Notes: generated by a model not told the origin, from the sequence alone. A stretch of 63,794 nt of DNA, filler included, from Rhabdomonas costata (GCA_019059605.1; 51 parts of 51 records of this genome joined end to end with filler, not necessarily neighbours in it); one strand, 5' to 3'. Positions 7,524 to 63,784 are shown, numbered from the whole stretch's first letter. Program-made: numbers and translations.

Positions 7524-7628
7524 GGTGGTTAAAAATACGGGGTCAACGGTGACGAGTGGTAAAAAAAAAATAGTGCACTATTGTTTTTTTTACCACTCGT
7601 CACCGTTGCCCCCGTACTTTCCACCACC
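7524..7628. repeat. ~105-bp imperfect palindrome centred on TAGTGCACTA
   Basis: CAACGGTGACGAGTGGT-A10-TAGTG pairs with CACTA-TTGTTTTTTTT-ACCACTCGTCACCGTTG. The outer arms are imperfect. Confidence 0.9.
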
Positions 7629-9570: not shown

Positions 9571-10052
9571 GTGTGGCTGTGGTGACCACGTGGGTGTCGG
9601 TAATGAGTTATGCCTTTTGCAAGATGAAATTAGTTGACACCAATTGGATATTGCCGAAAACCAATTCAACGCCCCCAATCCCCAACCTGAACTCCCAATC
9701 TGAACTTGCACATGCAATTCTCCCTATCCGATAGAACAAGGCCAACTGCTTTCATTCTGCTGTGCATTGCTTGGGACTCACATGGTTCACATGGTGACGT
9801 CAGTGCAGCTGCAGCTCATTCTACGTTTAGTGTGAGAGCCAGGCTGGGGAAATCGCCCCCGTCTCGGGTCCACAAATTTCATCTTGCAAAAGGCATAACT
9901 CATTACCGACACCCACCAACCNNNNNNNNNNNNNNNNNNNNNNNNNNNNNNNNNNNNNNNNNNNNTTAATTAATTAANNNNNNNNNNNNNNNNNNNNNNN
10001 NNNNNNNNNNNNNNNNNNNNNAGTGGGAAAAAGCAAAGCTCGCACGAGCTCG

Positions 10053-12328: not shown

Positions 12329-12422
12329 GTTTTATATTTTATTACCCAATAGGAAAAATTGTTACCTCTGTTACCGTTGTCAGTGGTAACAATTTTTCCT
12401 ATTGGGTAATAAAATATAAAAC
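12329..12422. repeat. Perfect 38-bp inverted repeat with 18-nt loop
   Basis: GTTTTATATTTTATTACCCAATAGGAAAAATTGTTACC (12329-66) and its reverse complement (12385-422). Confidence 0.95.
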
Positions 12423-15751: not shown

Positions 15752-16286
15752 GGTTATTCCCCTTGTGACCTCCTTCCCCCTTTTGCACCCTTCGTGTCGT
15801 TCCCTTCACTTCCTCCTGGCTTTGCCCTAGACTTTGTGTGTGCTCCATTTCAGCGTCAACTGGGGGGTTACAGCAAAGGGGCATTGATATAAACGGATCA
15901 CCCCCACACGGACCGCCTTTCCACCGAGACCGCATATTCTGCTTTTACATTTTCGCGTTCCGAGTGCCGGGCCCACGCAGAAGCAGCAAGGAAAAAGAAC
16001 ACCACATTGGTCAGAGGGGCAGTCCCGGCTCCCACTCCTCCAACGCAGGAAAGGCGACGCGCACAGCAAAAGAAAACGGATGGCAACAAACCTTTTATTT
16101 GCTCATGGGCACGAGCCGGAAAACCGGGCGCAACGCAGCCTGAATGCTGAAGCAATGTTTAACATCGGAATTAGAAAACCAAACAANNNNNNNNNNNNNN
16201 NNNNNNNNNNNNNNNNNNNNNNNNNNNNNNTTAATTAATTAANNNNNNNNNNNNNNNNNNNNNNNNNNNNNNNNNNNNNNNNNNNN

Positions 16287-17439
16287 TTTTTGGTGGAGGG
16301 CCTGCCCCAGGGCTACCGCGGTGATCGCGCTGATCCTCGTTGCTGTGAGGTCGAGGTGCCGCAGCTGGCACCCTGGCTGGCCCAAGACCTGCGCCACCGC
16401 CACCCCAGCCTCGTCGCCGAAGCGGTTGGAGCTGAGGTCGAGCACCTGCAGCGTGGGATTGGCGGCCAGGGCGGTGGCCAGGGCCACCACGGATCTCGGG
16501 GTGAGGGTGGTGTTGGAGAGGTAGAGCTCCACCAGGCAGGTGCTCTGGCGCAGCTGCCGCGCTAGCTCGCGGAGGGAGCTGTAGTGGAACCCCCGGGCGG
16601 GCTGGTGGTGCCTCAGTGCGTTATTAGACTGGAACCGCAGCACTTCCAGGCGGACTCGGACGCGCTTACAGTCCAGCAAGGTGCCCAGCGCCCGCACGGC
16701 GCCGTTGCCCAGGCTGAGATTGGAGGAGAGGTCCACACTACGGATGGAGCTGCTGTGGGCTATCCCCTGCACGAGGATTTCCACAGAGGCGTCCAGGAGC
16801 CCGCACTGAGTGAGTACAACCTCACGCACCCCAGAGTTGGCCTGGAACGCCGCGGAGAGCATTCGGCAGTCCTCCGTGGTGAGGGTCAGCCCGTGCACCA
16901 CGACAACCTTCACGGAGCGGTTGGACTTCAGGGCCTCTGCGAGGGCTTTCAAGTGGGGGTAGAGTTCCGGGGTGATCTCCAGCCGAACCGCAGCCTTGTC
17001 ATTGGTGTAAAGCATCTCCTCCAGCTCCAGAACGTCCGAGGGAATGGCGTGGTCGGCCAGAAGCAGCGCCTATGGAGCGGCACACACAGCGTAGACCAAC
17101 GGCAAACAAGCAGGGTACCCGTCGGAACCCATGAGCCATCATGGGAAAACGCAAAAAAAAAAATCGCAGAAGGTGGAACGCGAGTCCGCAAGGTGAGCCC
17201 TTGACGAGTTCTCCTAGGTGAGTTGAGGAGTAACCCAATTTAGAAGCACAGGCATGCCAACTGACCAGTCCCCTTGTTTTCTGGAAAATGCAAAACACGC
17301 TCATCCTACGTTCCCCTTTCTGAGTGTTCCCCTCGGAGACCTCGCCGCGCTGCTTCGAGGTCTTGCTGATGATCTCCCCCGAGCGCAGCAGGCCGATCAG
17401 GGAGGCCACCAGCAGGCTGCTGGGGAAGTCTGTGGGATC
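16287..17439 (-). CDS. Ribonuclease-inhibitor-type (NLRC3-like) leucine-rich repeat protein, two exons
   Basis: Exons 17439-17341 and 17069-<16287 with a phase-0 GT-AG intron. Repeats such as LQVLDLSSNRFGDEAGVAVAQVL and LVELYLSNTTLTPRSVVALATAL. Confidence 0.9.
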
Positions 17440-18147
17440 NNNNNNNNNNNNNNNNNNNNNNNNNNNNNNNNNNNNNNNNNNNNTTAATTAATTAANNNNN
17501 NNNNNNNNNNNNNNNNNNNNNNNNNNNNNNNNNNNNNNNGTGGTGGGTGTGTTTGGGTGGGGGGGGGGCAGAAGTCACTGCACCAGAAGAGGGGTTCTCA
17601 TGATGTAGACATTGCATCGTTTTCTAACCCCTTGCAAGTCGTATCTCCATTCACAAGGACCATGCATCGTTCATCGCCCTCAAACTCCTTGCGAGACCCA
17701 GGACCGATTTGACTGGACTTTGAGGAAAGCTGTTTGCAATTGTCTGGAACTGTGAGCGGATATAAATGATGAACGAACAGGGTGGGGGTTCATTTGCGAA
17801 GCGGTCGGGGGAGGTATCAAACCGCATAAGATTTAATACAGTGTAGTTGATATAAGGCAAAGTATGAGACCAGTCTATGGGGCTTGACCATCCCTGGTTT
17901 CCAAACTTCCAAACTTGCGTGTTGTTTGCCCCAGGCAACGTCTCCGTATCAGCCACGCGCTTCGGCCGTTTAAAATTTGGGTGAATGGGACATTGTATGT
18001 TTCATAGGCAATCGCTTTGATGAGTGATAGCATGATTACCAATTGTGATTAGCACAACTGGCGCACGCACCCACACAGCACTAGTAGCAAAAACCATATA
18101 AATGCCCTCTAGATGCCTCTTTAACGTTTGCCATTTGCTCTTTACAG

Positions 18148-19468: not shown

Positions 19469-20996
19469 GTGACGAGACGCAATACTCCGTACTCCCGCAC
19501 CCCCACACAGACCACACCCGCACGCACGCATGGCGCGGTTTCGGTTGCCACCTTGGACAATGTCACCAGGCATTTCTGCTTGCGCTGTGTGCACTAGGTT
19601 GTTGGTGAGGGGTTGTTGGGTAATGGGCTCGTTGTAGGGATATTGGATATGGGCCCCACCCCTTTGACAGCAACCAGAGCCTCCCTCTCCCTCCCACCCT
19701 CGTCGCCGCGCTGGCGCAATGGGTTCTTTTGCTTGCGTTTGCGCTTGTGTTGTGTGGTGGTTTGATGCGAGCAACCGCGGGTAGGCTCCCGTCATGCTAT
19801 CTTCGTCTATGTCAGGTCGACACACACCCATGTTGGCACCCATTGTCGTACTAATGTCGTACTCCCATTGAATCGCTCCTTTGCGGTCATCCATTTTCCG
19901 GTCGCCGCGTTCTCCACCACAACCCCAAACACACACACACCAAAANNNNNNNNNNNNNNNNNNNNNNNNNNNNNNNNNNNNNNNNNNNNTTAATTAATTA
20001 ANNNNNNNNNNNNNNNNNNNNNNNNNNNNNNNNNNNNNNNNNNNNTGCTTGGGTGTGTGGTGTGCGTGTGGTAGATTGCTTGTTTTTGAGCGCATCTCTT
20101 TATTCGCGTAAGCCGCCATTCGTGAGTTTCCATTTATTGTGTCAGCGGGGCGCGATGTGATGGTCTGTCGTGGGGCCGGCGCCGTTTTTTTTTGACTTGG
20201 CCTCGCTTTCCGCTTTACCCCAGACCGATTCATTCGATTTTAATTGTAAAATTTCGCAGCTGCAGGTCCAAGGTCCAAGTCAAAAAAAACGGCGCCGGCC
20301 CCACCACAGACCCTTTCCTATGCGCAGTGCTCAATATGTACAGCCGGACAAAACCCGGGCTCTCAGGGGAGGGCCGAGCGGAGAGAGGAGGCCGGGAGAG
20401 CCGTTATGAGAGAAATCCAGAATTGCAGGAACCGACACTCGCACAGGGACACGGCCACGATGAGGGAGCATACATGCATTGCGACACCGCTCAGCAAAAG
20501 GAAAATTTTGAACACAAAAAACGTCGCAGGTGTGCTTTGTGTTTGATACTTGCGTAACAGGACACCATTCACTTCCATACACATCTAGAGAGGATGAGAG
20601 CAACACCCGCGTTGTTCTTCCATGTAGTCCAGTTTTTTCAAGTCTTTTTTTTTAGGAATGAACACTTCCTGGCACCTCAAAGCGGCACCGCACCGGGCCG
20701 TACGGGGACGCTGCCTGGAAAGAACACCCATCATCCTTGTGTGCGTTGTGCAGAAGTCAAACTGAATGCAGCGCTCCCCTCAAACACAAAATTCAGTATT
20801 CCAGTAGTAAAGAAAGAAAGCCCAATACCTGCAAGAAAGCCCAATACCTCGCCCTCATCCATGTACGCACCGGACCCAGTCCTGTTCCTCCGAACCGTCG
20901 AAAAAGCAATTCACCAAACATTCCACAGCACTGTTATGCTTCGCTCTTCTGCACACATACACATCGACATCCATGGAACGGCGGACAATACCACAC

Positions 20997-21110: not shown

Positions 21111-21384
21111 CTGAACGTGTGAAAAGTGATCCGGTCGAGTGACCATTAATGTCCGATTTAGTCCATGACTAACCCCTTCACCACCGACTTCCAGGGCANN
21201 NNNNNNNNNNNNNNNNNNNNNNNNNNNNNNNNNNNNNNNNNNTTAATTAATTAANNNNNNNNNNNNNNNNNNNNNNNNNNNNNNNNNNNNNNNNNNNNGG
21301 TGTGGGGGGCACCAGGGTCCAGCTTCACCCCTGCCTCCCATCGCTGAAGCTGGACCCTGGTGCCACCCACTAACCCGATAAAAG

Positions 21385-28626: not shown

Positions 28627-29059
28627 CTTTGAATCTTTGCGGTGGTGATTCTAATTATCTGAAACCGGAAAAGAAGCTCTTGGAGATCGAAAATGAAGAA
28701 AACGGAACCACCACAACNNNNNNNNNNNNNNNNNNNNNNNNNNNNNNNNNNNNNNNNNNNNTTAATTAATTAANNNNNNNNNNNNNNNNNNNNNNNNNNN
28801 NNNNNNNNNNNNNNNNNATTGCCCCCTGTTTTTCAGTAGCACATCGGAGGGGCACAGTGCACAGGGGCTTAAGTTTAGTGTTTGGTGTACCTACAATGAC
28901 ATGCCCGTGAGGACATTGTCTGTTCATTTTCCATTTTTTTCAAGCTTCTGCAGATGGAAGGACGCTTATTTAAATTACAATCTTCCGGGGATGGGCGCCT
29001 CTTGCAGGGGTGCGGCCGCTTCCTCCCAGTCGTTCGTGTTTCTCACGTTCTTCGTACAG

Positions 29060-29167
29060 GAGGTGTTGTTTGAGTTCAATACGTACTTCAAAGTCAATCG
29101 AAAGCTTGGCCCAGCGATGAAGAAATTCTTTCAGCAGAAGCTGGGCTATTGCCTGGACCGCGTCGAG
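29060..29167 (+). CDS. Exon encoding the C-terminal catalytic strand of an ART-family ADP-ribosyltransferase (EVLFEFNTYFKV...)
   Basis: Pyrimidine tract plus ACAG acceptor, GAG|GTAAGT donor, 36 codons. EVL...NT.FKV is the ART motif that begins at the catalytic Glu. Confidence 0.75.
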
Positions 29168-29245
29168 GTAAGTGGTCTGTGGGTGTGCCTGTGGTGTAAG
29201 CTGGAGTGTGCTTTCTGGGAGTAAAAAGACTTTCATTCATTTCGT

Positions 29246-29321
29246 TGACGCAACTCTTCATCTAAGTATCCTACAGCCCCCTCATCCGGGCTGTAGGATA
29301 CTTAGATGAAGAGTTGCGTCA
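29246..29321. repeat. Perfect 34-bp inverted repeat with 8-nt loop
   Basis: TGACGCAACTCTTCATCTAAGTATCCTACAGCCC (29246-79) and its reverse complement (29288-321). Confidence 0.97.
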
Positions 29322-29468
29322 TCGAAAAAAAGAGAGGAACTTCACGCATGCGGACGCGGCGACAATCCAAAAGAAAGGGAACGAACGGGGACGGGTTCCA
29401 TTGGGGCAACTCACTGCAAAAAAGCATTCCGACAATGAGTATTCCGTGTGGAAGGGGTGAGTGCAGGC

Positions 29469-29663
29469 CTTCTCTTTCGGAAGCGCGGAAAGCCCCGAGA
29501 TCTCATGACCCCGGCTCTGGCCATCAGGTAGGGGGATGATCATGAACATCGTCCCGTCGGTCTTCCCATCGGCGCCCTTGAAGAATTGCTGCGCAACCTC
29601 GGGGTCTATCGTGGTTGAGGAGAAGGCCGACCATACCACATAATGCCCTTCCCGGTACAGCGT
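29469..29663 (-). CDS. Exon encoding the core of an R-S-E clade (NAD:arginine-type) ADP-ribosyltransferase
   Basis: TLYREGHYVVWSAFSSTTIDPEVAQQFFKGADGKTDGTMFMII...GHEISGLSALPKEK contains the W..FSST, A..F, GT.F.I and I..LS..P.E motifs. TTTTCCGCAG acceptor. The apparent donor is AAG|GCCTGC. Confidence 0.85.
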
Positions 29664-31324
29664 CTGCGGAAAAGCGTAGTCAGCATCCACATCCAGGCAA
29701 GAGGATAGAGCAAGAACAAATCTCTCACAGGCTGAGGAAATCTCAGGAAAAAGCCCTAAGACCTCCCAAGCGGTGCACTGGACGATGGATTAGGTAACCA
29801 GTCCCCCGCCCCCAACTTCCGTTGCACCGACCTCCCCAATGTGGGACTGGGGTTGACAGGCGGGATAGATCGGTCCGTGCGAAACCCCAGAAGGGCTTTT
29901 AACATCAAAATATGAGGATGACATTCACCTATCTGCTCCAGTGAAGTGCAGAGCAATCACCACCCCCAACNNNNNNNNNNNNNNNNNNNNNNNNNNNNNN
30001 NNNNNNNNNNNNNNTTAATTAATTAANNNNNNNNNNNNNNNNNNNNNNNNNNNNNNNNNNNNNNNNNNNNTGTGTTGGGTGTGGGTGGTGTGGTTGTTGT
30101 AGAAGGGTAGCGATTTTGTTGGTGGTTACATGAGGTGAGAGCACGAGGTTGACAAACGAAGGAAGCAAAGTTGTATGTGGGGTTCGTTGATTGGAGAGGA
30201 GGCGGGGAAGTGTTGAGGCGAAGGTGATGAGTGGCTCTGCCCGTGGTCAGAAAAAATGTGATTGCAATCATTGGAGTGAATCCCATTGGACTTGGTCAAA
30301 GCCTGAGAACACGGCTTTATGAAGTCCGGAAGACTTTGCTGCCCTTGCAGGAAGAAATCCCCACGGCTCGACGTAAGGTTTTTTCTCTGTTCGGCAATAA
30401 GCCTCCCTCAAGCGAAGAATTGTGGTGCAGAGTGATGGCGTGAAAGCTTTCGAGAGCTCGCGGGGGCGCTCAGGACGAAAAGGTCAGTTGGGCACGCGGT
30501 TATGTCCATGTGGGGACTACGAATTGGAGAAAGCGCCGAGGTTGTCAGAAAAGCCTCATCATCGTTGACAGCCTTTTCCAAGTCTTTCTGCAAAATGAGC
30601 TATTCGACCCTCTCCGAGCGCTTTTCTACATTGGGGAGAACGCCACGACGAAATGTGAAGGAAAGTTTCTCGCCAAATGGAAATGTGGAGCGTTCAAGGC
30701 AGCTTTTTGATCGGAACCAGCGACGCTATCAGCAGGTATTATGTTAATGATGTTCTCTAATGTGCGCTTTCACTGATGGGGCTGTTGGGGACCGCTTGCC
30801 CATGTTCTGCACTGTGGCGCTCATCTTTGCAGTTGTCCTGATGGCAGCATCTTTGCTGCCTTTTAGCCGAGAGGTTTCTGCGTATAACTGAATGAATTTT
30901 TCAGAGCGGCAAGTTCACTACCACAGCCCACCAGAGATCGGCCCGCCACTGACTGTACTTGAGGGTTGATTTCCTCCTTTCCTCGGCACAGGCCGATTAG
31001 GGCCGAGCCTGAGCGCCTTCATTCACAAAAGTCGCTGGGCTGCGATTGTTATCTCACCTTTCCGAGTTTCCATTCCGGCCAGCGCATAGCTGGGCAGGTT
31101 GTGAAGTTAATGAACATAAAAAGGCTGATTTCCCCGTTTGTCCCCTTCAGGTGAATAGCATTCGGAGCCGTCCACAGCCCCAACCGGCACATGCTGTTCC
31201 TGAACGCGTGATTCGCCCTGCTCNNNNNNNNNNNNNNNNNNNNNNNNNNNNNNNNNNNNNNNNNNNNTTAATTAATTAANNNNNNNNNNNNNNNNNNNNN
31301 NNNNNNNNNNNNNNNNNNNNNNNT

Positions 31325-32434
31325 TTGGGTAGATTCGTTCAGTTTTACTGGATTTCTTCCCCTTTTTTTACGTATGAGCTCTTCGAGGGCTGTCAGGACC
31401 CGCAGTGCTCACAGGACGAGACAGACGCGTACGTGCAGGCTACCCCGTTCTGCTTCTTCCTTGGGATCCCAACCCGCGGCGGCACCGAGGGTCCATTGAA
31501 GAGCTCCGGGGATTACAACGAGGGGCCTGTTTTCTGCCGAACGGTGGATCTTCAGGCCGTGGAAGCGGCAGTGGTCAGCATCGCCCAGGCTTATTCCCGT
31601 AGCCTTCGAGAGAAGATTTGGGAGGCCAGCGGGAGAAAGGAGGCCCTGGGTCGCCTTCCAGGTAGCCTTCTCTCCCGCGTGGTTGCTCCACTGGAGGCAT
31701 TGAACGCCGAAGATCTCCAGGATTGGGCATCCGCGGTCAACGAGCTTCGGGATCTGCAGTCCTGTTCCTTCCTGTGGGCGGCCGAAGGCGAAGTTACGGA
31801 CTGGGGGTGTCTCTATCGCCTCTTCACGGAATCCTCGGATTGGCTATGGTCCACCGCAGTGTTCTTCGTCTCCTCCGTCTCCCCAGAGACGATGCAGAGT
31901 GTCTGCAAGCTATATGACGACATGGACGAAGACCAGGACGAGGACGAGAAAGCAGATGGCTCCGACGACCCCAAGTGCTCCAACGATCGTTGCATTCCGC
32001 CATTTGAAATTCGCGAGGTGATCCTTCTCCGTGACAACCAGGTGGCCTCAGGAGAACGCCCAGTCGCCGCCTTTCTTCGCTGCTGTCACCAGGAGGACGC
32101 CACCGATGTATTTATCTTCCACTTCTTCGGAAAAGCACCGGCACAGATGGCGACAACCCTTGTGCAAGCTGAGATCATCCCAGCGGGGGTTCTCTGGAAG
32201 GCCGGTGGGGCCGTCTTGCAGGAAACTCTGCGGGCTTTTCCTTCCGCCCAGGCCGGGGGGCAGATCCTTGCCCAAAGCCGGACCTTCTCGCTTGGTCCCA
32301 CTTGGGTGCTTGACAACGCCCTCACCGACTCGCTGTTGGGGCATCTCGCCTTGCCTGGCGAATCCCAGGCTGGGGTTTCCCGTCGGCCTTTTTCGGAGGA
32401 GCAAACTTTGATTTCCATCGGTGAAAGCGAGTAA
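31325..32434 (+). CDS. Long uninterrupted ORF (369 aa, 5'-truncated), unknown protein with an acidic tract
   Basis: The open frame spans nearly the whole contig, has protein-like composition and includes DDMDEDQDEDEKADGSDD. No family recognised. Confidence 0.7.
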   Translation: MGRFVQFYWISSPFFTYELFEGCQDPQCSQDETDAYVQATPFCFFLGIPTRGGTEGPLKSSGDYNEGPVFCRTVDLQAVEAAVVSIAQAYSRSLREKIWEASGRKEALGRLPGSLLSRVVAPLEALNAEDLQDWASAVNELRDLQSCSFLWAAEGEVTDWGCLYRLFTESSDWLWSTAVFFVSSVSPETMQSVCKLYDDMDEDQDEDEKADGSDDPKCSNDRCIPPFEIREVILLRDNQVASGERPVAAFLRCCHQEDATDVFIFHFFGKAPAQMATTLVQAEIIPAGVLWKAGGAVLQETLRAFPSAQAGGQILAQSRTFSLGPTWVLDNALTDSLLGHLALPGESQAGVSRRPFSEEQTLISIGESE

Positions 32435-36481: not shown

Positions 36482-37490
36482 CTGGGGCTAAGTGCGGACT
36501 CTCAACGCTGCAGTACAAGCTGAGCCAGATGGGCATCGACTACCGCGCCCTTTGGTATTGGACGCTTTCTTCCATCTCCCGCACCTCAACAGTGTGGGCG
36601 GATCGTTCGGATGCACCTGTGAATCCCACGACACGACTTCGATATGTTTGCTTTCAGAAACGCGCACACCAAGAGAGAGGCAAGAAGCGATGGGGCAGTC
36701 AAACAGGGCCTTCCACTTGGAATTGCATCAGAACGTCTCTCTCTCTCTCTCCTCGGTGTTTGTAGCTATGTGGGCGAGCGCTCGAGAATGCATACCAGCT
36801 TCCGCAACCAGCGTATCGCAGTAGAGAGTTGTGGAAAGAAGAACCAAGCGTCAGCTCCGCATCGGCCAGCGCGCTATGCGCTATTTCTTTCTCCTAGGGC
36901 TCAGATCTTGGACACCATTCTGAAGACCCTGGTGTGCGCAGAGGACTCGATTGAGCACGCCCCGGCCTGCTTTGAGGTGTTCGGGTTTGACGTCCTGATC
37001 GACTCCAACCTCAAGCCATGGATTCTGGAGGTCAACGCCTCCCCAAGGTACGTTCAGATGGGAAGGGGCTCCAAAAGGGAGGAAGGTGCGGGCTTCGAGG
37101 GATTCGTGGGCCATAAAGTTGATCTTGGATCCACGATCCACTCGTCTTTCTCAACCTGTCTGTGGCAAAATCTGAAACGCAGGTGATACAGGCTGTAGAA
37201 GCTGCGAAGACACCAATAGGGTAGAGGGGTGGGGGGACACTCTCCCATGGACTTCAATCCACCTCCACCACACTGACGCACTACTTTGCGGGCTTCGTGG
37301 GGAAAGACTAGCCTGGTGCTCGTCCCCTTCCTTCTTCTCAGCATGGATGTCGACCACGACCTGGACCGTGCCGTGAAGGGGGCGATGATCCGGGACACGG
37401 TGCGGCTGGTGCAGCCCTTGCCCTTCGACAGGGTAGCCCTGGCGTCCATTCTGGACCGTCGGCTGGGCTCAGACTTTGGCCACCCCCCCC
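36482..37490 (+). CDS. Tubulin-tyrosine-ligase-like (TTLL) polyglutamylase-type enzyme, three exons
   Basis: Exons 36482-36554, 36898-37047 and 37342->37490 join in frame. Signature [27 protein letters not shown]...[12 protein letters not shown]. Confidence 0.93.
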
Positions 37491-40097
37491 NNNNNNNNNN
37501 NNNNNNNNNNNNNNNNNNNNNNNNNNNNNNNNNNTTAATTAATTAANNNNNNNNNNNNNNNNNNNNNNNNNNNNNNNNNNNNNNNNNNNNGGTGGGTGTG
37601 GTTCAGCAAAAAATGAGCTACTAATGTACTGCAACTATTTGCTGAACCACACCCATCACAACATGGTGTGCAAACACTATCCCCAGTTCCAGAACAGCCG
37701 CCGCCGATCGCAGAGTCCACCCAACCTCTTCACACAGACCCTGAGGCGCCAAATCCACTGGACACTACTCATATTCTACGTCTGCTGAACACTCGCTTTC
37801 ACCATCTCTTGAAGGCTAATCATTCTTCATGAATCTCGTTAATCATCACCATCAAGTTAGTCCTCTTTGGACGATTCCCAACCACTTAGATGGAACTGGA
37901 TCCCACAACCATCTTTAAAACTTCCCGTGATAATGGGTGCGTTATTCCAGCAGAATCTCCACATCGGACTACGATGGTGACGCATTTGCCTCAACTATTG
38001 CAAAATTTTGAGCCAACCGTGCCGTAGCCACAAATACTCAATCAACCCTTAAACCAAGAGCTACCGCAGATTTCACCAACTACCGAACCATGCACTGAAC
38101 GTTACACCAAGAACACCTGCCATCACACCCAAGCAGCTCCTATCAACTATCACTCAAAGCATTGCTCACACCAACGAATCACCAAATTAGGAATAACCAC
38201 TTAGACGGTCCAATTTTGCCCCTATCACACTCACTGTACCTAAATTCCATCCTGACTTATGCTTTCAGTTTGAAACTTTTATCTTTATTCCATGGTGGCA
38301 TTCCATCCTTTGTTTCGTCTGCACATCCTTCTTTCCTCCATTATTCTTCAACATTTCAACTGCTGTTCTCGAAAAAAGTCAGCCAATTATCACACTGTTT
38401 TTGTAGCAAAGCACCATCTTTCACAACCGGCATCTCGCCCAAACGCAGGACATCGGCCATCACCGCTCCGTTGAACTTAGTGTTTCACACAACCTGCGGT
38501 AACTTTTCGTATGCCCCCTCTAGTGGCAGCCATGTAAGTCTTTGTTAGAAACGGCTGCCTTGGAGGTAGACCGCACCCCAACTTCATGCATAACCAGCTA
38601 ACGGGGAGAAGAACTTGTACCTAGTGGATGGGAAATATGGAATTTACCCTGATCCTAGTGCAAAGTCCAACTAGCGTTACCACTTGACACCAATGGCTCC
38701 CGCAAGCTTCCCAGTTCTCAACACCACCGTGACACTCCTACCTNNNNNNNNNNNNNNNNNNNNNNNNNNNNNNNNNNNNNNNNNNNNTTAATTAATTAAN
38801 NNNNNNNNNNNNNNNNNNNNNNNNNNNNNNNNNNNNNNNNNNNGGTCAGTTTGATGTAGGGGGCGTACGCAAGCAAGTTGTAGGTAAGCATGTGGCGATG
38901 TTGGCTTAGATTGTCTTTTCACGGAAGCAGTCGGTCACATCATCATGAAAATTGCAGGGTGTGATTGTGTCTTTCTGCGCCGTGCGGAGATGTTTGTGTA
39001 GCGTATTGAAATCGGAAATCAATTCCGTGTTGGGTGTTGCAATGACACGGGGGGCGACGAATACCTTCCATGGGGTACTTTTGGAAGCGAGGTGCGGTAG
39101 CATTTACTGGTCATTCCCATTTGCGTTTTGATTCCGGCGCCTTCAGTGTTACCGCGGGGCTTCAAGCACACGTTTCATTACCTAAGAGCTCAATCCGGTG
39201 GGCGCCTTAACACCACCATTTTTTCTGGAGCGTGGCCCGCCAGTGGAATCACAGCGGATCACGCAGACCGATACCAGGCACAAAACCTCTCATTTTTCTC
39301 CAGACCCAGGCAGGCATCTCTCATTGTTCCTGGATTTACCAGAACAAAAATAGGCATAGGTGAAAATCGAAACACGGAATCGGCAGGGGAAAAATCTGCG
39401 TAAAATCAGCCCGTGGCGAACACAAAACGGGCAAACGAAAAACCCTATAATTTGGCAAGAAAAAACAATCGGCACCGCAGGGAGTATCCGACAACACAAC
39501 TCTCCTGAACCCACCATCCCAGACACTCTGGGTTTCCCCGTGTTTGTGCGTGCTGTGTGTGTTCCGATTTCCCCCCGTGGTGTTTGCACGCCACGTCTTG
39601 CGGCTTTGTAAAATGGATTTACATTGCCAAAAATTGGACTGATTTGACCTTGTCGTGATAGAAAAACTTTCGTGCGTTCGGGGCAATGCTTTGGGTGGTT
39701 TTCCTGAATCTTTGCTGGGCGTTTCATAACCCTAAACAATGGTTTGATGCACACCATTATACATACCCAAACCGATGCACAAAACATGGCTCCTGTAAAA
39801 AACGACGCTTTCACTTACAAAGATCCATGGAGCCAAAAATGACAAAACAAATAACGAGAGTTTTAAAAACCCAATTGCCGAATACCAAAATATCCACACC
39901 CAGTGGGTGTAGCACACCTAAATTGGCCTAAATCAGCTCCAATTAATGCAAAAACAACGAAGGAAAACGGATTCGACTGCTCCGAGATATGACACTANNN
40001 NNNNNNNNNNNNNNNNNNNNNNNNNNNNNNNNNNNNNNNNNTTAATTAATTAANNNNNNNNNNNNNNNNNNNNNNNNNNNNNNNNNNNNNNNNNNNN

Positions 40098-40326
40098 TGT
40101 TGGTGTGGTGTACAACATTCCTGGGATGACCTTTGCCACGCCACCGCTGAACCTCACCACGCAGCTCCTGGCGGACATCTACCTAGAGCGGGTGACGCGG
40201 TGGGATGACCCTCAGATTGTCGGGCTGAACCCCTATTTGGCGGGGCTGCTGCAGAGCGTCCCCATTACTCGGTTCGTTCGTGCGGACTCCAGCGGCACGA
40301 CCTCCTTGTTCACCGCTGCTCTGAAG
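40098..40326 (+). CDS. Exon of a PstS-like periplasmic phosphate-binding domain
   Basis: VVYNIPG...LNLTTQLLADIYLERVTRWDDPQIVGLNP...ITRFVRADSSGTTSLFT matches the PstS YN.PG, W.DP.I..LNP and R.D.SGTT..FT motifs. Ends at AAG|GTGAAT. Confidence 0.9.
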
Positions 40327-42604
40327 GTGAATTTTCTCTCTCTCCATCCTTTTTTTTCTGTTCCCTTTAATTTCCTTCAGAAAATGTTAAATTATCATGT
40401 CTTTGTGTCAAAGTCACCTTGTCAAACGAAACTCCTCATTCTGCCGAACCTTTGACACGCTCTAGTAGCAGCCCTCACCGGCGCGGAATCTCATCTTCGC
40501 TTACAGTTCAAACCGATGGATTGTTTTTGTCTATTCCGCTCCACTTGGCGAGCGAGATCACTGTGAACAGTCCACGTCACACATCCGCTGGGTTTTGGAC
40601 GAGCGGCTCGTCGTGTACTGGCATTCTGGCACAGCTTTTGCTCAGCGACTTCTTCTCCATGCACTGAGGGAGGGGCAGTGGATGGTAGTTCAGTTGTGAG
40701 GCCGATCTTCCCCATGTTGAGAAAGCAAGATACCTGACCGAACAAGGTAAAATGTGGAAAGTTATAGTAGCGCATATGTCAGGCAGCAGAGAGAGTCACC
40801 AACGAGCACGTCGACGATACGGCGAGGGAGGAAGTGAGTTAGAGTGAGAGCAGAGGTAAATGCCACATGCCCACGTGAGACAGACGCCGTGCACCAAGGA
40901 GAACACTAAAGAACACCAATGAGTGTGGCCACCATCCCTTGATGGGCTCCCCATCCCACAGTCCGCTATAGGAACAACTTTTTCGTTGCGGTACGGGTGG
41001 AGAGAACTGCTGCCTTGTGGGACGGGACTGCGGCTGAGTTGAGCAGGCTCGGTCGAATGATGAGCAGCCGATCATCACAGCTTGCATCATCAACAACAGC
41101 TATTCACTCCTGAACAAAAAACCCACAAAGCACATAGGAGTAACCAGAAACCGGCCCAACTGGCTCAATGGGATAGCACAAGCAGAACAGCCGCCGCCTG
41201 AAGGTGACGTCCCGATGATTAAATCGGACTCACCTCGGTCCCCAACACCCNNNNNNNNNNNNNNNNNNNNNNNNNNNNNNNNNNNNNNNNNNNNTTAATT
41301 AATTAANNNNNNNNNNNNNNNNNNNNNNNNNNNNNNNNNNNNNNNNNNNNGGGTGGGGGGGGTATAAAGTGCTCCGAACCACAACAAAGAAAGGGACAGG
41401 GAAAAAAAGAGGAGATCAGTGGGAGGTGAATGAACGACGGAGCTAGCGCGAGTTGGGACAGCGGGAAAGCAGACAAAAGGCTCAAAGCGGCGGAAGTATC
41501 GACTGCTAAGAACAGAAAATGAGCAGCACAAAAGAAAAAGAAAAACATGGCGCAGAGTCCGATCAGTAAAATAACTAGCATTATCAGATGATAAGTGCAT
41601 TACAGGAGCGTCTTCTACGACTGGGATACCAAGTGGTTTCCACGCGTATGGAGAGGTGACATCATGGCTCGGTCGGCTGACCTGACCTGCCCGCCTGACC
41701 GCATGTACGTGGGACAGCAATAAGTGGTCCGCCTGACCGCATGTAGGCAGGACAGGAAGAAGCGCCATTGCGGGGAGAGGGGGGGAGGGAAGGCATTTAA
41801 ACTTTGGTCAAGTCGGTTTTTGGTGAGATAGGGCTACAATTTGAGCGCAGTTTTCGGCCCGACATTGAACCATGAGAGAAGGAAGGACAAAGATGCAGAA
41901 CTATTTGTCATTTTAGGATCCTATTCTAAGCCTTTTCATTTCAGTTCGCACAACCCCTATCCCTCCACACATTGTTTCTTTCTTGACGTTCTTGATGGAC
42001 CCCCCCCCATCCCATGTTCTGGGGAAACGGCCCCTCATTCTTCCTTTCATTTTGTTTTCTTTGCACCTTTGCTGTGAAACTGACTTTTTCGGGAAGTTGC
42101 AGCGCCCTGTTTTTGCAGAGTTATTGCAACAAAGGTTAGGCCTTCCACTCTGAACCCCCTGCTGCTTTCGCCACTTCACTACGCTCTTTTATTGTTTCTG
42201 CTTCTGCTGTGTTACAGTTACTCCTATGCGGGGCGGGTGTTCCGCATACTGGTCTCTGCTGCAACTGAACAGGAAGCGTACAAGAGAACAACAAGCAACC
42301 GAACAAGTGTACGAGACCTCAGCAAGCGCAGAAACAAGGCAGCACGCACAGCAGCAAGCAAACGAGTAGCAAACCAGATGAGCCTCCGTGGCCCACCTCG
42401 AAGTCAAACTGGGCCGCAGGTTGGTCAACCCCTCACCGCACCTTCACTCCTCTGGCAACCCTCCAATGACCAATTACACGCCCAAACTTTGGGCCAAAAC
42501 ACANNNNNNNNNNNNNNNNNNNNNNNNNNNNNNNNNNNNNNNNNNNNTTAATTAATTAANNNNNNNNNNNNNNNNNNNNNNNNNNNNNNNNNNNNNNNNN
42601 NNNT

Positions 42605-47620: not shown

Positions 47621-47764
47621 TTGTCCTCGCCCTGCTTAGCACCAGCTGGAGTGAAGTTTAATTGCATCGAATAGGATCACCCAAAGCCTCCTGAGGACAC
47701 TGAATAACTACGCCAGACATGGATAAAACTTCACTCCAGCTGGTGCTAAGCAGGGCGAGGACAA
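47621..47764. repeat. Perfect 39-bp inverted repeat with 66-nt spacer at contig start
   Basis: TTGTCCTCGCCCTGCTTAGCACCAGCTGGAGTGAAGTTT (47621-59) and its reverse complement (47726-64). Confidence 0.95.
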
Positions 47765-54835: not shown

Positions 54836-57800
54836 TAACGGGGCTTATTTTTTTTCCGATCCGTGAAAGAAGCGTCCGCTGGGCTGGGCATGAATGCATC
54901 TTTTCGGGCCTGCTAGTGTATATCAAAGTCTAGGTACTCTTCTGTTCAGTCTGTAGCAGGGCATTTTTCTGCAACATTGGAATCTTGAGGGCTGCCTTTA
55001 GTGCTGAAGCGAACTGACTCGCTCTGAAGTNNNNNNNNNNNNNNNNNNNNNNNNNNNNNNNNNNNNNNNNNNNNTTAATTAATTAANNNNNNNNNNNNNN
55101 NNNNNNNNNNNNNNNNNNNNNNNNNNNNNNTTGTGGTTAGGCAAGTGGTCAAGCACCATTTGCGCCACGTTTTCACATCGAATGAGCTCGAGTATCACCA
55201 GTTATGCCCTCGTAAATGCCTCCGAAACGCCCCCCCAAGCCCGGCATCTGTGAAAACCAACTCTCACCTTACCTAAGAGGTTCCAGGTTCATGGTTTAGT
55301 GGTGCCTGAAAACACAGGACCCCAGGCGTAGAATGCAAGTCACTTCCTGAGCCTCGGCGTCGCCCTTTCACAGGCAAAAAACGAAAACGTTGTGGTCGCA
55401 AGCGTGTTTCTTTGCATCTCGTGCTTAGTTTGGGGGGTGATTGAAGCTTCACCAGAAAATATGTTAGCAGCAGAGCAAAATGTGTTGATTGCACGAAGCG
55501 TCACCCGGATTTGCGGTCCAAGCGCAAAGCCTCGAGCAAGTGCACACAGTTGACAGTTGATTTACATCTCTTCACTAAGACAGCCCAGTACATCCCCCAC
55601 ACGGCCCAGGATTTAGTATGTGAGCTCCCCTTTACTCCAGGACACCCACACACAATAACACAGCAAGAACGCACACCCACTCCTCCATCAACCATACCCC
55701 CCCCGCAGAAGGCTTCGATCAATCTCTTGGTACCTTTACATTTCCAATGTCCTGAACGCATCCACCATCTTCCTAGCGTGACCATTGCAGCGCATTTCCT
55801 CATATTCAAGTCCCAAATGTTATCACTACCAGTCTAAGTCGCTTCTGCGCACCCACCTTTCCTCCCTCCTTGCAAGATCCCAAACTAGCAAAATAGCAAA
55901 ATATTTGTGCTCCCTGTACGCCCCCACCTCTCATTGGTTCTTTACTGCGTACAGTCCTGTGCCCCCCACGTAATTCCAGACGCCGTGGGACCTCTCCATC
56001 CCTTTCTCCATCCATTCATCCCTCGATTCGTTCCTCATCAACTTGTCACCATCGCCCACCTTCTACTCTAGATCATGCTCCATACCTCTAATCCAAGATC
56101 CAAGATCTTTCTCCCATGTTCCGTGGCAATGTGTCACACCGCGTCACCGCACTGGTACCATCATCCGTGTAAGATACCGATCCACCCCATCCATCTGTCC
56201 ACTATGAACAATCAAACCCAAACACACAGCTTCTTCCCAAAGTTATAAAAGCCACAAGAACATCCTCCTACTCCCAAAACAANNNNNNNNNNNNNNNNNN
56301 NNNNNNNNNNNNNNNNNNNNNNNNNNTTAATTAATTAANNNNNNNNNNNNNNNNNNNNNNNNNNNNNNNNNNNNNNNNNNNNCCTGCCCGATTCTGTGAG
56401 TCGTGCTTTTGTGTGTGCTCCTTTTTGTTTTTGTAGAAACTCCTCGGTCCTACTTCCACACCAGCGATCGCGGTGATTTTCTTTCTCCCCCCTTCTCTGG
56501 TCACGGAGGTAGACCTTCGAGGCACTCGATATTGCGGGTCCACGTAGCTCCTTCCTGTGTGCTTTCTGCGCTACAGGCTGAGCTACTACGCTCGCCCCCT
56601 CTCTCCCTCTCTCCCCTTGCCTTGGCCGTAGTACACTGAAGCCTGCGTTCCCCAGTTGCAAAAATGACGTGCGGGGAGGAGTTTGTGTCCCTGGTGTACC
56701 CGTGAGTGTTGGGCACGGGTTGGCCCTCTGGAAGTTAAGGGGGGGGGGGACGGTTACCGTTGGTAACAGTTACCTGTGGTGATTAAGATGATGATGGCAC
56801 CCCCCCCCAATCACATAGGTTTGCTTATCGGGCACACCTGATGAACTTTAGTCACCGAAAACCGCCATTTTAAGTAAGTAACTGTGGTCGATAAATATGG
56901 CCGTGAAAAGAAGGCACCGCCTCCTAACCCCAGGAAGCCGCTGGGGCGGGGGGAACTCCCAGACCCTGCTCCTCCACCGCAGTGCTTCGCGACCTTACCA
57001 ACCCCTTGTCATACAAAAAAGAATACTTTTGCCCATTTCGTGCCGAATTAAATGAACCTGCGCTGAGTATTTACAGTTTGGAAGCGTAGGAGAACGCACC
57101 CCCCACAATCTGCAGTTAGTTTCTGGTGTAACCCCGCTCTGATAGATCATCTGATCTCCGGAGCTACTAATTGTTAACATTCTTGGCTTGAAGCTGTCAT
57201 CTTTTAGGCCACTGAAAAACCTTGGGTTTTCCAGCATCCCCACTAACGGTTCACCTAGGTGAGGGGTGAGAGGTATCTTCTAAAATTGTACAAATGTGTG
57301 TGTGTGCGTGCCATTTTCATCGGTGTTCCGACTTTTTCAATGGGCAAGTTCCGATTCCGATGATTAACTTTCTCAATGGGCAGGTCCTCACGCCATCTAT
57401 CGCATCTATCGTCGGAAAAAGTGTTAAGCCATCATTAATGCAAACTTCTGGAAGTAACCCCACTAAACCCAACCTTGTACCTACTCATCAAAACCACACC
57501 AAACACACCACACACACCCAACCCCAAAAACAAANNNNNNNNNNNNNNNNNNNNNNNNNNNNNNNNNNNNNNNNNNNNTTAATTAATTAANNNNNNNNNN
57601 NNNNNNNNNNNNNNNNNNNNNNNNNNNNNNNNNNTTGTTGTGGTTGTGTTGTGCTGAGGAAGCGAAAATGATTGCCAATTTTGAGGCTTCTCTGGTTTAG
57701 CTGCTCAGAAAGAACAACCGTATGTTGACACTCTCTCTTTGTTGGTTCCACAAATCCCACTACGGTGACACTTTTTCACTATTGTTCCGGTGTGTGGAAG

Positions 57801-58185: not shown

Positions 58186-58438
58186 TGGCATTACTTTAGA
58201 ATTGTACCCACGGCCAGGAACCCTAATCCTAACCCTAACCGTATCACTAACCATGAACCTAACCCTAACCATATCCCTAACCAGAACCCCCAAAGGTAAC
58301 TTCAAAAAATCCAGTAAACATGTGTCACTAAAAGTAGCCGTCTTGGATGTGCTCACATATGTAAATAAAAGGGTACAAGGAGCCGATGTTGAAAAAGAAC
58401 ATGAAGACAGAGGTGGGTACAATTCTAAAGTAACGCCA
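58186..58438. mobile_element. 253-bp MITE with 26-bp TIRs carrying degenerate (CCCTAA)n repeats
   Basis: TGGCATTACTTTAGAATTGTACCCAC (58186-211) and GTGGGTACAATTCTAAAGTAACGCCA (58413-438) pair with one mismatch. Internal AACCCT-like hexamers at ~58219-58282. Confidence 0.85.
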
Positions 58439-63542: not shown

Positions 63543-63784
63543 GGCAGGAGTGACGTAGCTTCTGGACCTCATTTGACATCCACAATTCAAAGCTTACCGT
63601 TAGACCCTCACTGCTCGAACTGTCAAGAGTGCTGCTTATCCCCTGCTTACCCATCCCTTCCGCAAACTTGGGCGACGGAAGTCCGCAGGATAGAATGGAG
63701 AGCTGGCAGGATAGAAACGCTCCCACCGAAAAAGCTTTGAATTGTGGATGTCAAATGAGGTCCAGAAGCTACGTCACTCCTGCC
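63543..63784. repeat. Perfect 53-bp inverted repeat with 136-nt spacer at contig end
   Basis: 63543-63595 is the exact reverse complement of 63732-63784. Confidence 0.95.

Follow-up and report, generated by a model that had tools for sequence, protein, structure and literature searches.

Consecutive ADP-ribosyltransferase exons on opposite strands of a euglenid-type contig: most likely an inversion made in vitro from an ordinary spliced gene

The described enzymes closest to the coding sequence considered here are the R-S-E mono-ADP-ribosyltransferases (ARTs; PF01129, also PF03496). Two exons in the window, by which we mean the whole stretch of DNA analysed (63,794 nt), between them carry an FSSTT motif and the two halves of K-E-K-E-V-L, and the closest solved structure by sequence is that of the Vibrio ART Vis (4xzj). 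The family to which these exons belong nevertheless differs from both secreted bacterial toxins and vertebrate ecto-ARTs: its members are long, intron-bearing protist proteins with C-terminal ankyrin repeats, and they are predicted ARTs, judging from their sequences. As regards the disposition of the exons, the nearest precedent is Drosophila mod(mdg4), in which exons on opposite strands are joined by trans-splicing, the order having been proven in unamplified DNA and the mRNA observed. What the two loci have in common is the presence of consecutive coding exons on opposite strands of one locus, with each splice site intact. They differ in that both the mRNA and unamplified DNA are available for mod(mdg4), whereas the locus described here is known from a contig of amplified DNA alone and its relatives are spliced in cis.

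Two further systems invite comparison. The nonconventional introns of euglenids, as presented in PMC8219788, resemble this locus in lineage and in having a non-GT donor; since the same source classes GT(GC)/AG introns as conventional, the GC donor of the window is not a nonconventional one. Moreover, in nonconventional introns the two ends of the intron pair with each other on a single strand, whereas the palindrome found here is separated from the exon ends by 141 nt and 72 nt and brings no intron ends together. The other system is that of the inverted chimeras of whole-genome amplification, ascribed to template switching of displaced 3' ends (Lasken & Stockwell 2007, PMC1855051). In that study, more than 85% of 475 chimeras from phi29 amplification were inverted with an intervening deletion, and intramolecular events were favoured; these figures serve as an analogy only, because the chemistry of phi29 multiple displacement amplification (MDA) differs from that of the kit suggested by our data. 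The likeness to our locus is considerable: nearby segments are inverted, sequence is missing between them, and the DNA of the window carries primer remnants in a data set with many small fold-backs. The differences are that G/T-degenerate primers were used here rather than phi29 MDA (PMC1855051), that the junction and any microhomology are not locatable, and that a 40-bp palindrome, which a simple switch does not create, stands between the two segments. A limited literature search for inverted chimeras arising from the PCR-based kit found none.

The window consists of 51 unrelated contigs, each of 1150-1155 nt (approximately 1153 nt), placed end to end with 50 spacers of the form N44-TTAATTAATTAA-N44 between them, and features spanning any spacer are meaningless. 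The entire finding is contained in one contig of 1153 nt (28818-29970), which is bounded by spacers on both sides and has unrelated neighbours. A preliminary description of this DNA had placed the hairpin between the exons in mid-contig; this holds in so far as the hairpin is 422 nt and 643 nt from the two ends, but the contig itself is only 1153 nt long and one of the 51 that were concatenated. Its 3' end bears an A/C-only run, CACCACCCCCAAC (29958-29970, plus strand), which we take to be the complement of a G/T-degenerate amplification primer, while no matching G/T run is present at the 5' end.

Exon A lies on the minus strand (29663-29469; 65 codons) and its full translation, TLYREGHYVVWSAFSSTTIDPEVAQQFFKGADGKTDGTMFMIIPLPDGQSRGHEISGLSALPKEK, begins with TLYREGHYVVWSAFSSTT and ends in ...ISGLSALPKEK. 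It contains the S-T-T motif as FSSTT (SSTT at 29621-29610, minus strand) and, close to its end, the first Glu of the E-x-E motif (29474-29472, minus strand). It is preceded by a pyrimidine tract and CAG, with the acceptor AG at 29665-29664, and is followed by a GC donor at 29468-29467. Exon B lies on the plus strand (29060-29167; 36 codons) and encodes EVLFEFNTYFKVNRKLGPAMKKFFQQKLGYCLDRVE; going by the motif, its first codon (29060-29062) specifies the second, catalytic Glu of E-x-E. Its acceptor reads ...CGTACAG, with the AG at 29058-29059, and its donor is a GTAAGT starting at 29168. An intron-like stretch follows each exon: 72 nt after exon B (29168-29239, plus strand), opening with the canonical GTAAGT, and 141 nt after exon A (29328-29468, minus strand), opening with the GC donor. 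We saw no decay in exon A, in exon B or in any of the four splice sites. If the exons were joined, the sequence across the junction would be the exon A end, ...CCGAAAGAGAAG, followed by the exon B start, GAGGTGTTGTTT...; the coordinates, strands and peptides given for them in the preliminary description were all reproduced by translation of the two intervals. Its designation of the donor GCCTGC as non-canonical, on the other hand, has to be withdrawn, GC-AG being an ordinary minor intron class. The residue that follows exon A is Val (GTN) in eight of nine relatives that read through this site and Ala (GCN) in the remaining one, P0004; as the window likewise has GCC at this point, its donor is that of an ordinary GC-AG intron.

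Two minor features of exon A and its flank may be recorded here. At 29628-29630 (minus strand) it has Ser within the V-W-P motif, where 13 of the 14 relatives compared have Pro, which could reflect relaxed constraint, a change specific to this paralogue or an error introduced by amplification; this Ser, in VWSAF, and a Cys in GYCLDRVE are among the variants that distinguish this copy. Further, a consensus-like GTGAGT lies 50-55 nt past exon A (29414-29409, minus strand); immediately preceded by a pyrimidine tract and CAG, it may represent a cryptic intronic splice signal. A prolongation of exon A as far as this GTGAGT was considered and rejected, because the added residues would take the place of the second Glu of E-x-E and no relative shows them.

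When the best-matching relative, P0003, was compared with the window by tblastn, just exons A and B were recovered, on opposite strands; no further exon was found on either strand of the contig, and all other matches had E-values of at least 2.8. The exon for the (Y/F)-R-G strand, which bears the catalytic Arg, is absent from the stretch of contig that precedes exon A (307 nt). In the relatives this Arg is present and belongs to an upstream exon, the motif reading PLYRGIN in P0003.

By themselves, the two exon peptides and a 107-aa read-through had no Pfam match to an ART, the only hit being DUF4426 at a sub-threshold E of 0.15-0.29; hence, the ART identity is drawn from the relatives. Exon A, searched against 1.84 billion representative proteins, gave 21 hits at E<=0.001, of which the best was P0003 (eukprot:RCo016120; E 5.7e-30), a protein of 661 aa with ART and ankyrin domains. 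According to PMC8219788, RCo identifiers denote transcript-derived proteins of the euglenid Rhabdomonas costata; the single text file of its supplement contains 0 occurrences of RCo016120 or of 'ADP-ribosyltransferase'. Exon A matches P0003 residues 414-477 at 89% identity (7 of 64 aligned residues differ), and exon B matches residues 478-513 at 97% (one difference in 36; residues 477-514 at 94.7% by tblastn). The two pieces abut in P0003 without a gap, as ...SALPKEK-EVLFEFNTYFKVNRKLGPAMKKFFQQKLGYSLDRVE-VYELAEV..., and the halves of E-x-E, which are on opposite strands here, are contiguous in P0003, P0007, P0017 and P0020. These alignments identify exons A and B as consecutive exons of one gene family, with the copy in the window probably being a paralogue of P0003; an identity of 89-97% makes R. 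costata or a close relative the probable source of the window.

The relatives also place the family among the ARTs. Against PF01129, the NAD:arginine ADP-ribosyltransferase family with a gathering cut-off of 22.3 bits, P0003, P0007, P0017 and P0020 score 33.9, 39.5, 39.6 and 46.3 bits, respectively, and three of these four also have ankyrin repeats. P0020 aligns with Vis (4xzj) at E 2.6e-8, with YRG, [ST]-S-T and E-x-E all in register, and through P0020 the FSSTT of exon A lines up with paF[ST]ST of Vis. The locus is thus assigned to the R-S-E profile through its relatives, at 33.9-46.3 bits, and the S-T-S/T motif is found in exon A itself. The contiguity in P0003 and the PF01129 matches of the relatives uphold the original proposal that the two exons are the halves of an R-S-E ART split inside E-x-E (K-E-K-E-V-L). 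In the protein searches, P0003 was the only other full-length protein containing exon A. A metagenome scan with exon A recovered a single locus, L001, which encodes a distant ART (52% over 25 residues) with an intronless E-x-E site and is uninformative on the locus at hand.

The usual structure of these genes can be read from the remaining hits. Several are short ORFs that run from exon A directly into intron sequence, and therefore come from genomic DNA. In P0013, exon A is followed by 31 in-frame intron codons (93 nt) and then exon B, all on a single strand; P0014 shows the same succession, again on one strand, with 72 in-frame intron codons (216 nt). P0012 comes from the same locus as P0013 but carries a frame shift: its tail can encode, in a shifted frame, 19 of 24 exon B positions, as against a maximum of 14 in a null of 200 shuffles. 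P0010, for its part, appears to be the P0014 locus. With P0012 and P0010 duplicating P0013 and P0014, the evidence comes from two independent paralogous loci rather than four. Taken at the level of sequence, the family has a conserved phase-0 intron between the two Glu codons of K-E-K-E-V-L, and the gene represented in our contig is an ordinary spliced member of a multi-copy, euglenid-type ART+ankyrin family. A search for a longer ORF that would extend the left side of the contig, and might have placed exon A ahead of exon B in this copy, found no homologue, and neither that search nor the protein searches recovered a collinear version of this very copy.

Between the two exons lies an 88-nt hairpin-forming palindrome (29240-29327), 72 nt past exon B and 141 nt past exon A. 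Its arms (29240-29279 and 29288-29327) are 40 nt long with one mismatch, and enclose an asymmetric 8-nt loop, CCTCATCC (29280-29287); within them is a perfect core of 34 nt (29246-29279, plus, and 29288-29321, minus), in agreement with the perfect 34-bp inverted repeat at 29246-29321 first noted between the facing exons. The window contains exactly two copies of the 34-nt arm, where 0 would be expected by chance. Folded as single-stranded DNA, the hairpin reaches -45.9 kcal/mol, compared with -8.3 +/- 2.3 kcal/mol for shuffled sequences (z = -16.5), and not one of 200 shuffles folds as well. With up to three mismatches allowed, neither the rest of the contig, whose sequence stops 242 nt from exon B, nor the rest of the window contains another copy of the arm. 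A 24-mer from the arm had 0 matches in the genome_contigs and viral_contigs collections, which are not expected to contain this eukaryote. A scan of the whole window against Rfam returned 0 families, and the hairpin is no known RNA. A spliced-leader-like sequence, CTTTTTTTCG (29332-29323, minus strand), adjoining the right arm was rejected as being at chance level: with up to one mismatch it has nine matches in the window against 5.97 expected, and nine or more were obtained in 16 of 100 shuffles.

The hairpin is not a simple snap-back palindrome, in which the flanks would also be complementary. Beyond the arms, the left flank (L) aligned with the reverse complement of the right flank (R) scored 20, the shuffles having a mean of 20.4 and a maximum of 29; direct similarity of L to R scored 18, also not above the shuffles. 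As the flanks are not complementary, the palindrome itself would be natural in nearly every scenario that we consider.

The contig ends of the window carry a clear record of how the DNA was prepared. A G/T-only run of at least 7 nt starts 36 of the 51 contigs and an A/C-only run of at least 7 nt ends 31 of them, whereas the reverse controls, A/C at the start and G/T at the end, gave 0 and 0; among internal positions, 2.25% start such a G/T run. These end runs are the mark of whole-genome amplification with degenerate primers. Untrimmed primer remnants can be seen, for example, at 30071-30100, 17540-17568, 2507-2534 and the 3' end of 56489-57534, and some ends, such as those at 30071 and 17545, retain longer strings that look like fixed primer; such remnant bases are not genomic sequence. 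There is a commercial amplification kit, PCR-based, whose primers have a fixed G/T-rich part and then approximately 10 G/T-degenerate bases, and the G/T-degenerate primers seen here point to a PCR-based kit. The draft genome of R. costata, as described in PMC8219788, was assembled with SPAdes from two separate samples of DNA amplified with GenomePlex (Sigma) WGA4, and has an N50 of 1194 with 36,105 contigs above 1 kb. The window represents material of the same type as this draft.

Ten of the 51 contigs contain a perfect inverted repeat of 18 nt or more whose loop does not exceed 243 nt, whereas each of 20 shuffles of all contigs contained none; repeats with a loop above 300 nt were absent from all 51 contigs. 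In seven of the ten (pieces 7, 8, 10, 18, 31, 39 and 51; 7536-7616, 9590-9916, 12329-12422, 21302-21370, 37593-37655, 47621-47764 and 63543-63784), the outer arm is 2-17 nt from the contig end and adjoins or includes a primer-derived run. With arms of 18-53 nt and loops of 15-243 nt, these terminal repeats match the product of a short, primer-initiated strand that folds onto itself and is extended, with itself as template, as far as its 5' end, and we read them as fold-back products of the amplification. The other three are internal: those of piece 17 (20162-20312), 116 nt from the contig end, and piece 47 (58186-58438), 349 nt from it, and the palindrome of our finding at 422 nt. The first two have arms of 31 and 26 nt, mismatches included, and loops of 89 and 201 nt; the loop of the 58186-58438 repeat opens with degenerate CCCTAA telomere-like repeats (approximately 58212-58290). 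The palindrome at 29240-29327, unlike the seven terminal repeats, has no primer-like run beside its arms. The arms of all ten repeats are at most 53 nt long; fold-backs with longer arms would be expected to collapse in the de Bruijn graph, leaving as their only trace strand-discordant contigs of the kind described here.

On this basis, we consider that the convergent order is probably an inverted chimera generated in vitro or a mis-join. A minor share of that probability goes to a mis-join by the assembler through two inverted palindrome copies in adjacent introns. The exons and the hairpin are real sequence, but the opposite-strand order most likely does not exist in the genome of the living organism. 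Briefly, we envisage the following course of events. The true gene would have exon A, an intron of a few hundred nt, exon B and the next intron in succession on one strand, with the natural 88-nt palindrome situated within one of these introns. Before it was sequenced, the DNA was amplified with G/T-degenerate primers, as the contig ends show. During strand-displacing synthesis, a growing strand might then have come off its template close to the palindrome and continued at a point on the complementary strand some hundreds of nt distant, yielding a product in which the neighbouring segment was inverted and some sequence deleted. This chimeric molecule would subsequently have been amplified and assembled into the contig. 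The chimeric junction, if any, may be anywhere in 29168-29468. What is found accords with such a chimera in several respects: the template was primer-amplified, neighbouring segments are inverted with loss of what intervened, and other inverted artefacts occur in the data set. In addition, the joined pieces are immediate neighbours in the gene, which fits a local, intramolecular switch.

The case for an artefact rests on base rates: it is favoured because in-vitro inverted products are common in this data set, while fixed in-vivo inversions between adjacent exons are rare. The evidence counting against it is that a simple fold-back does not explain the palindrome, that its arms are free of a primer run, that the exons and splice sites are intact and that no collinear copy was found. 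Further, k-mers of ~55 nt or reads of 250 nt span a palindrome of 88 nt unambiguously when its loop is asymmetric; hence, a molecule with the order L-hairpin-R probably existed physically, which a real inversion predicts equally. The contig as assembled is the simplest reading of the sequence, and taken at face value it would mean a genuine in-vivo inversion of the segment bearing exon B, leaving either a disabled paralogue or a structural polymorphism. We regard this as unlikely, as we do the routes by which it might have come about, namely a replication template switch at the palindrome or recombination between inverted palindrome copies flanking exon B. The two segments do have a palindrome between them, and in vivo, too, such events are promoted by palindromes; the Ser for Pro in V-W-P (Pro in 13 of 14 relatives) hints weakly at relaxed constraint; and this copy is not among the transcript-derived proteins found, which comprise only P0003, at 89%. 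Such an absence means little, however, the R. costata transcriptome being incomplete according to PMC8219788. Set against a real inversion are the rarity of its kind in the face of inverted artefacts in 7 of the 51 contigs here, the lack of a second palindrome anywhere in the window, the 242 nt ahead of exon B included, and exons and splice sites that are without decay. The suggestion that an inversion during amplification or assembly is a serious null hypothesis has, thus, become the favoured account, on the strength of the primer remnants, the primer-linked fold-backs in 7 of 51 contigs and the collinear relatives.

Much less probable are two further readings. One supposes two interleaved convergent paralogues, with a plus-strand gene contributing exon B, a minus-strand gene contributing exon A, and the next exon of each beyond the contig. 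The size of the family (21 hits at E<=0.001, several of them genomic read-through ORFs) is in keeping with this, yet we judge it very improbable, as introns of more than 650 nt in the minus-strand gene and more than 800 nt in the plus-strand gene would be needed, each containing the exon of the other in antisense, whereas the relatives have introns of 93 nt and 216 nt at this site. The tblastn search with P0003 found no same-strand partner exon in the contig, and it would be a coincidence for exact neighbours in the coding sequence to face each other in this way. The long introns required and the missing partner exons together speak against the paralogues offered among the initial options. The least probable reading is that the order is functional, either with exon B as an invertible cassette that switches the catalytic Glu on or off, or with exons A and B joined by trans-splicing. 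The intact frames and splice sites on both strands agree with it, mod(mdg4) provides a precedent for antiparallel exons joined in trans, and spliced-leader trans-splicing is used by R. costata (PMC8219788). The cassette, proposed at the outset as a segment bounded by palindromes, has a single palindrome instead: a second is absent from both contig and window. The trans-splicing initially suggested has likewise found no support, since a transcript of this copy is not among the protein matches, and the sole transcript-derived relative, P0003, is a different copy with 89% identity in exon A. Moreover, the relatives splice this junction in cis over a short intron, a plus-strand transcript would also have to run past the antisense of exon A to reach its following exon, and the leader-like sequence beside the hairpin is at chance level.

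Were the convergent order true and in use, it would be the first case outside insects of a nuclear gene with consecutive opposite-strand exons joined in trans or, alternatively, a eukaryotic switch that inverts the exon for the catalytic residue of an enzyme. In either event, a euglenid-type organism, already equipped with spliced-leader trans-splicing, would provide the catalytic Glu of an ART only under certain conditions. Under the artefact reading that we prefer, the locus is of value as a caution: assemblies from primer-amplified DNA can contain local inverted chimeras that mimic exotic gene structures, and such material can be recognised quickly by the G/T and A/C primer runs at the ends of its contigs, combined with small fold-back repeats. 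The solid, if modest, result is a multi-copy ART+ankyrin family in a euglenid-type genome, in which a conserved phase-0 intron splits E-x-E.

Other contigs of the window contain further coding pieces. An ORF fragment at 40099-40455 (plus strand) matches PBP_like_2, a phosphate-binding, PstS-like family, at E 6e-8, and the contig bearing it may be a bacterial contaminant or hold a transferred gene. At 16284-17069 (minus strand) there is an ORF with LRR_6 (RNI-like) repeats, and an open frame of 369 aa at 31325-32434 (plus strand) matches no Pfam family. Finally, a tubulin-tyrosine-ligase exon with canonical AG/GT borders is found at 36905-37049 (plus strand).
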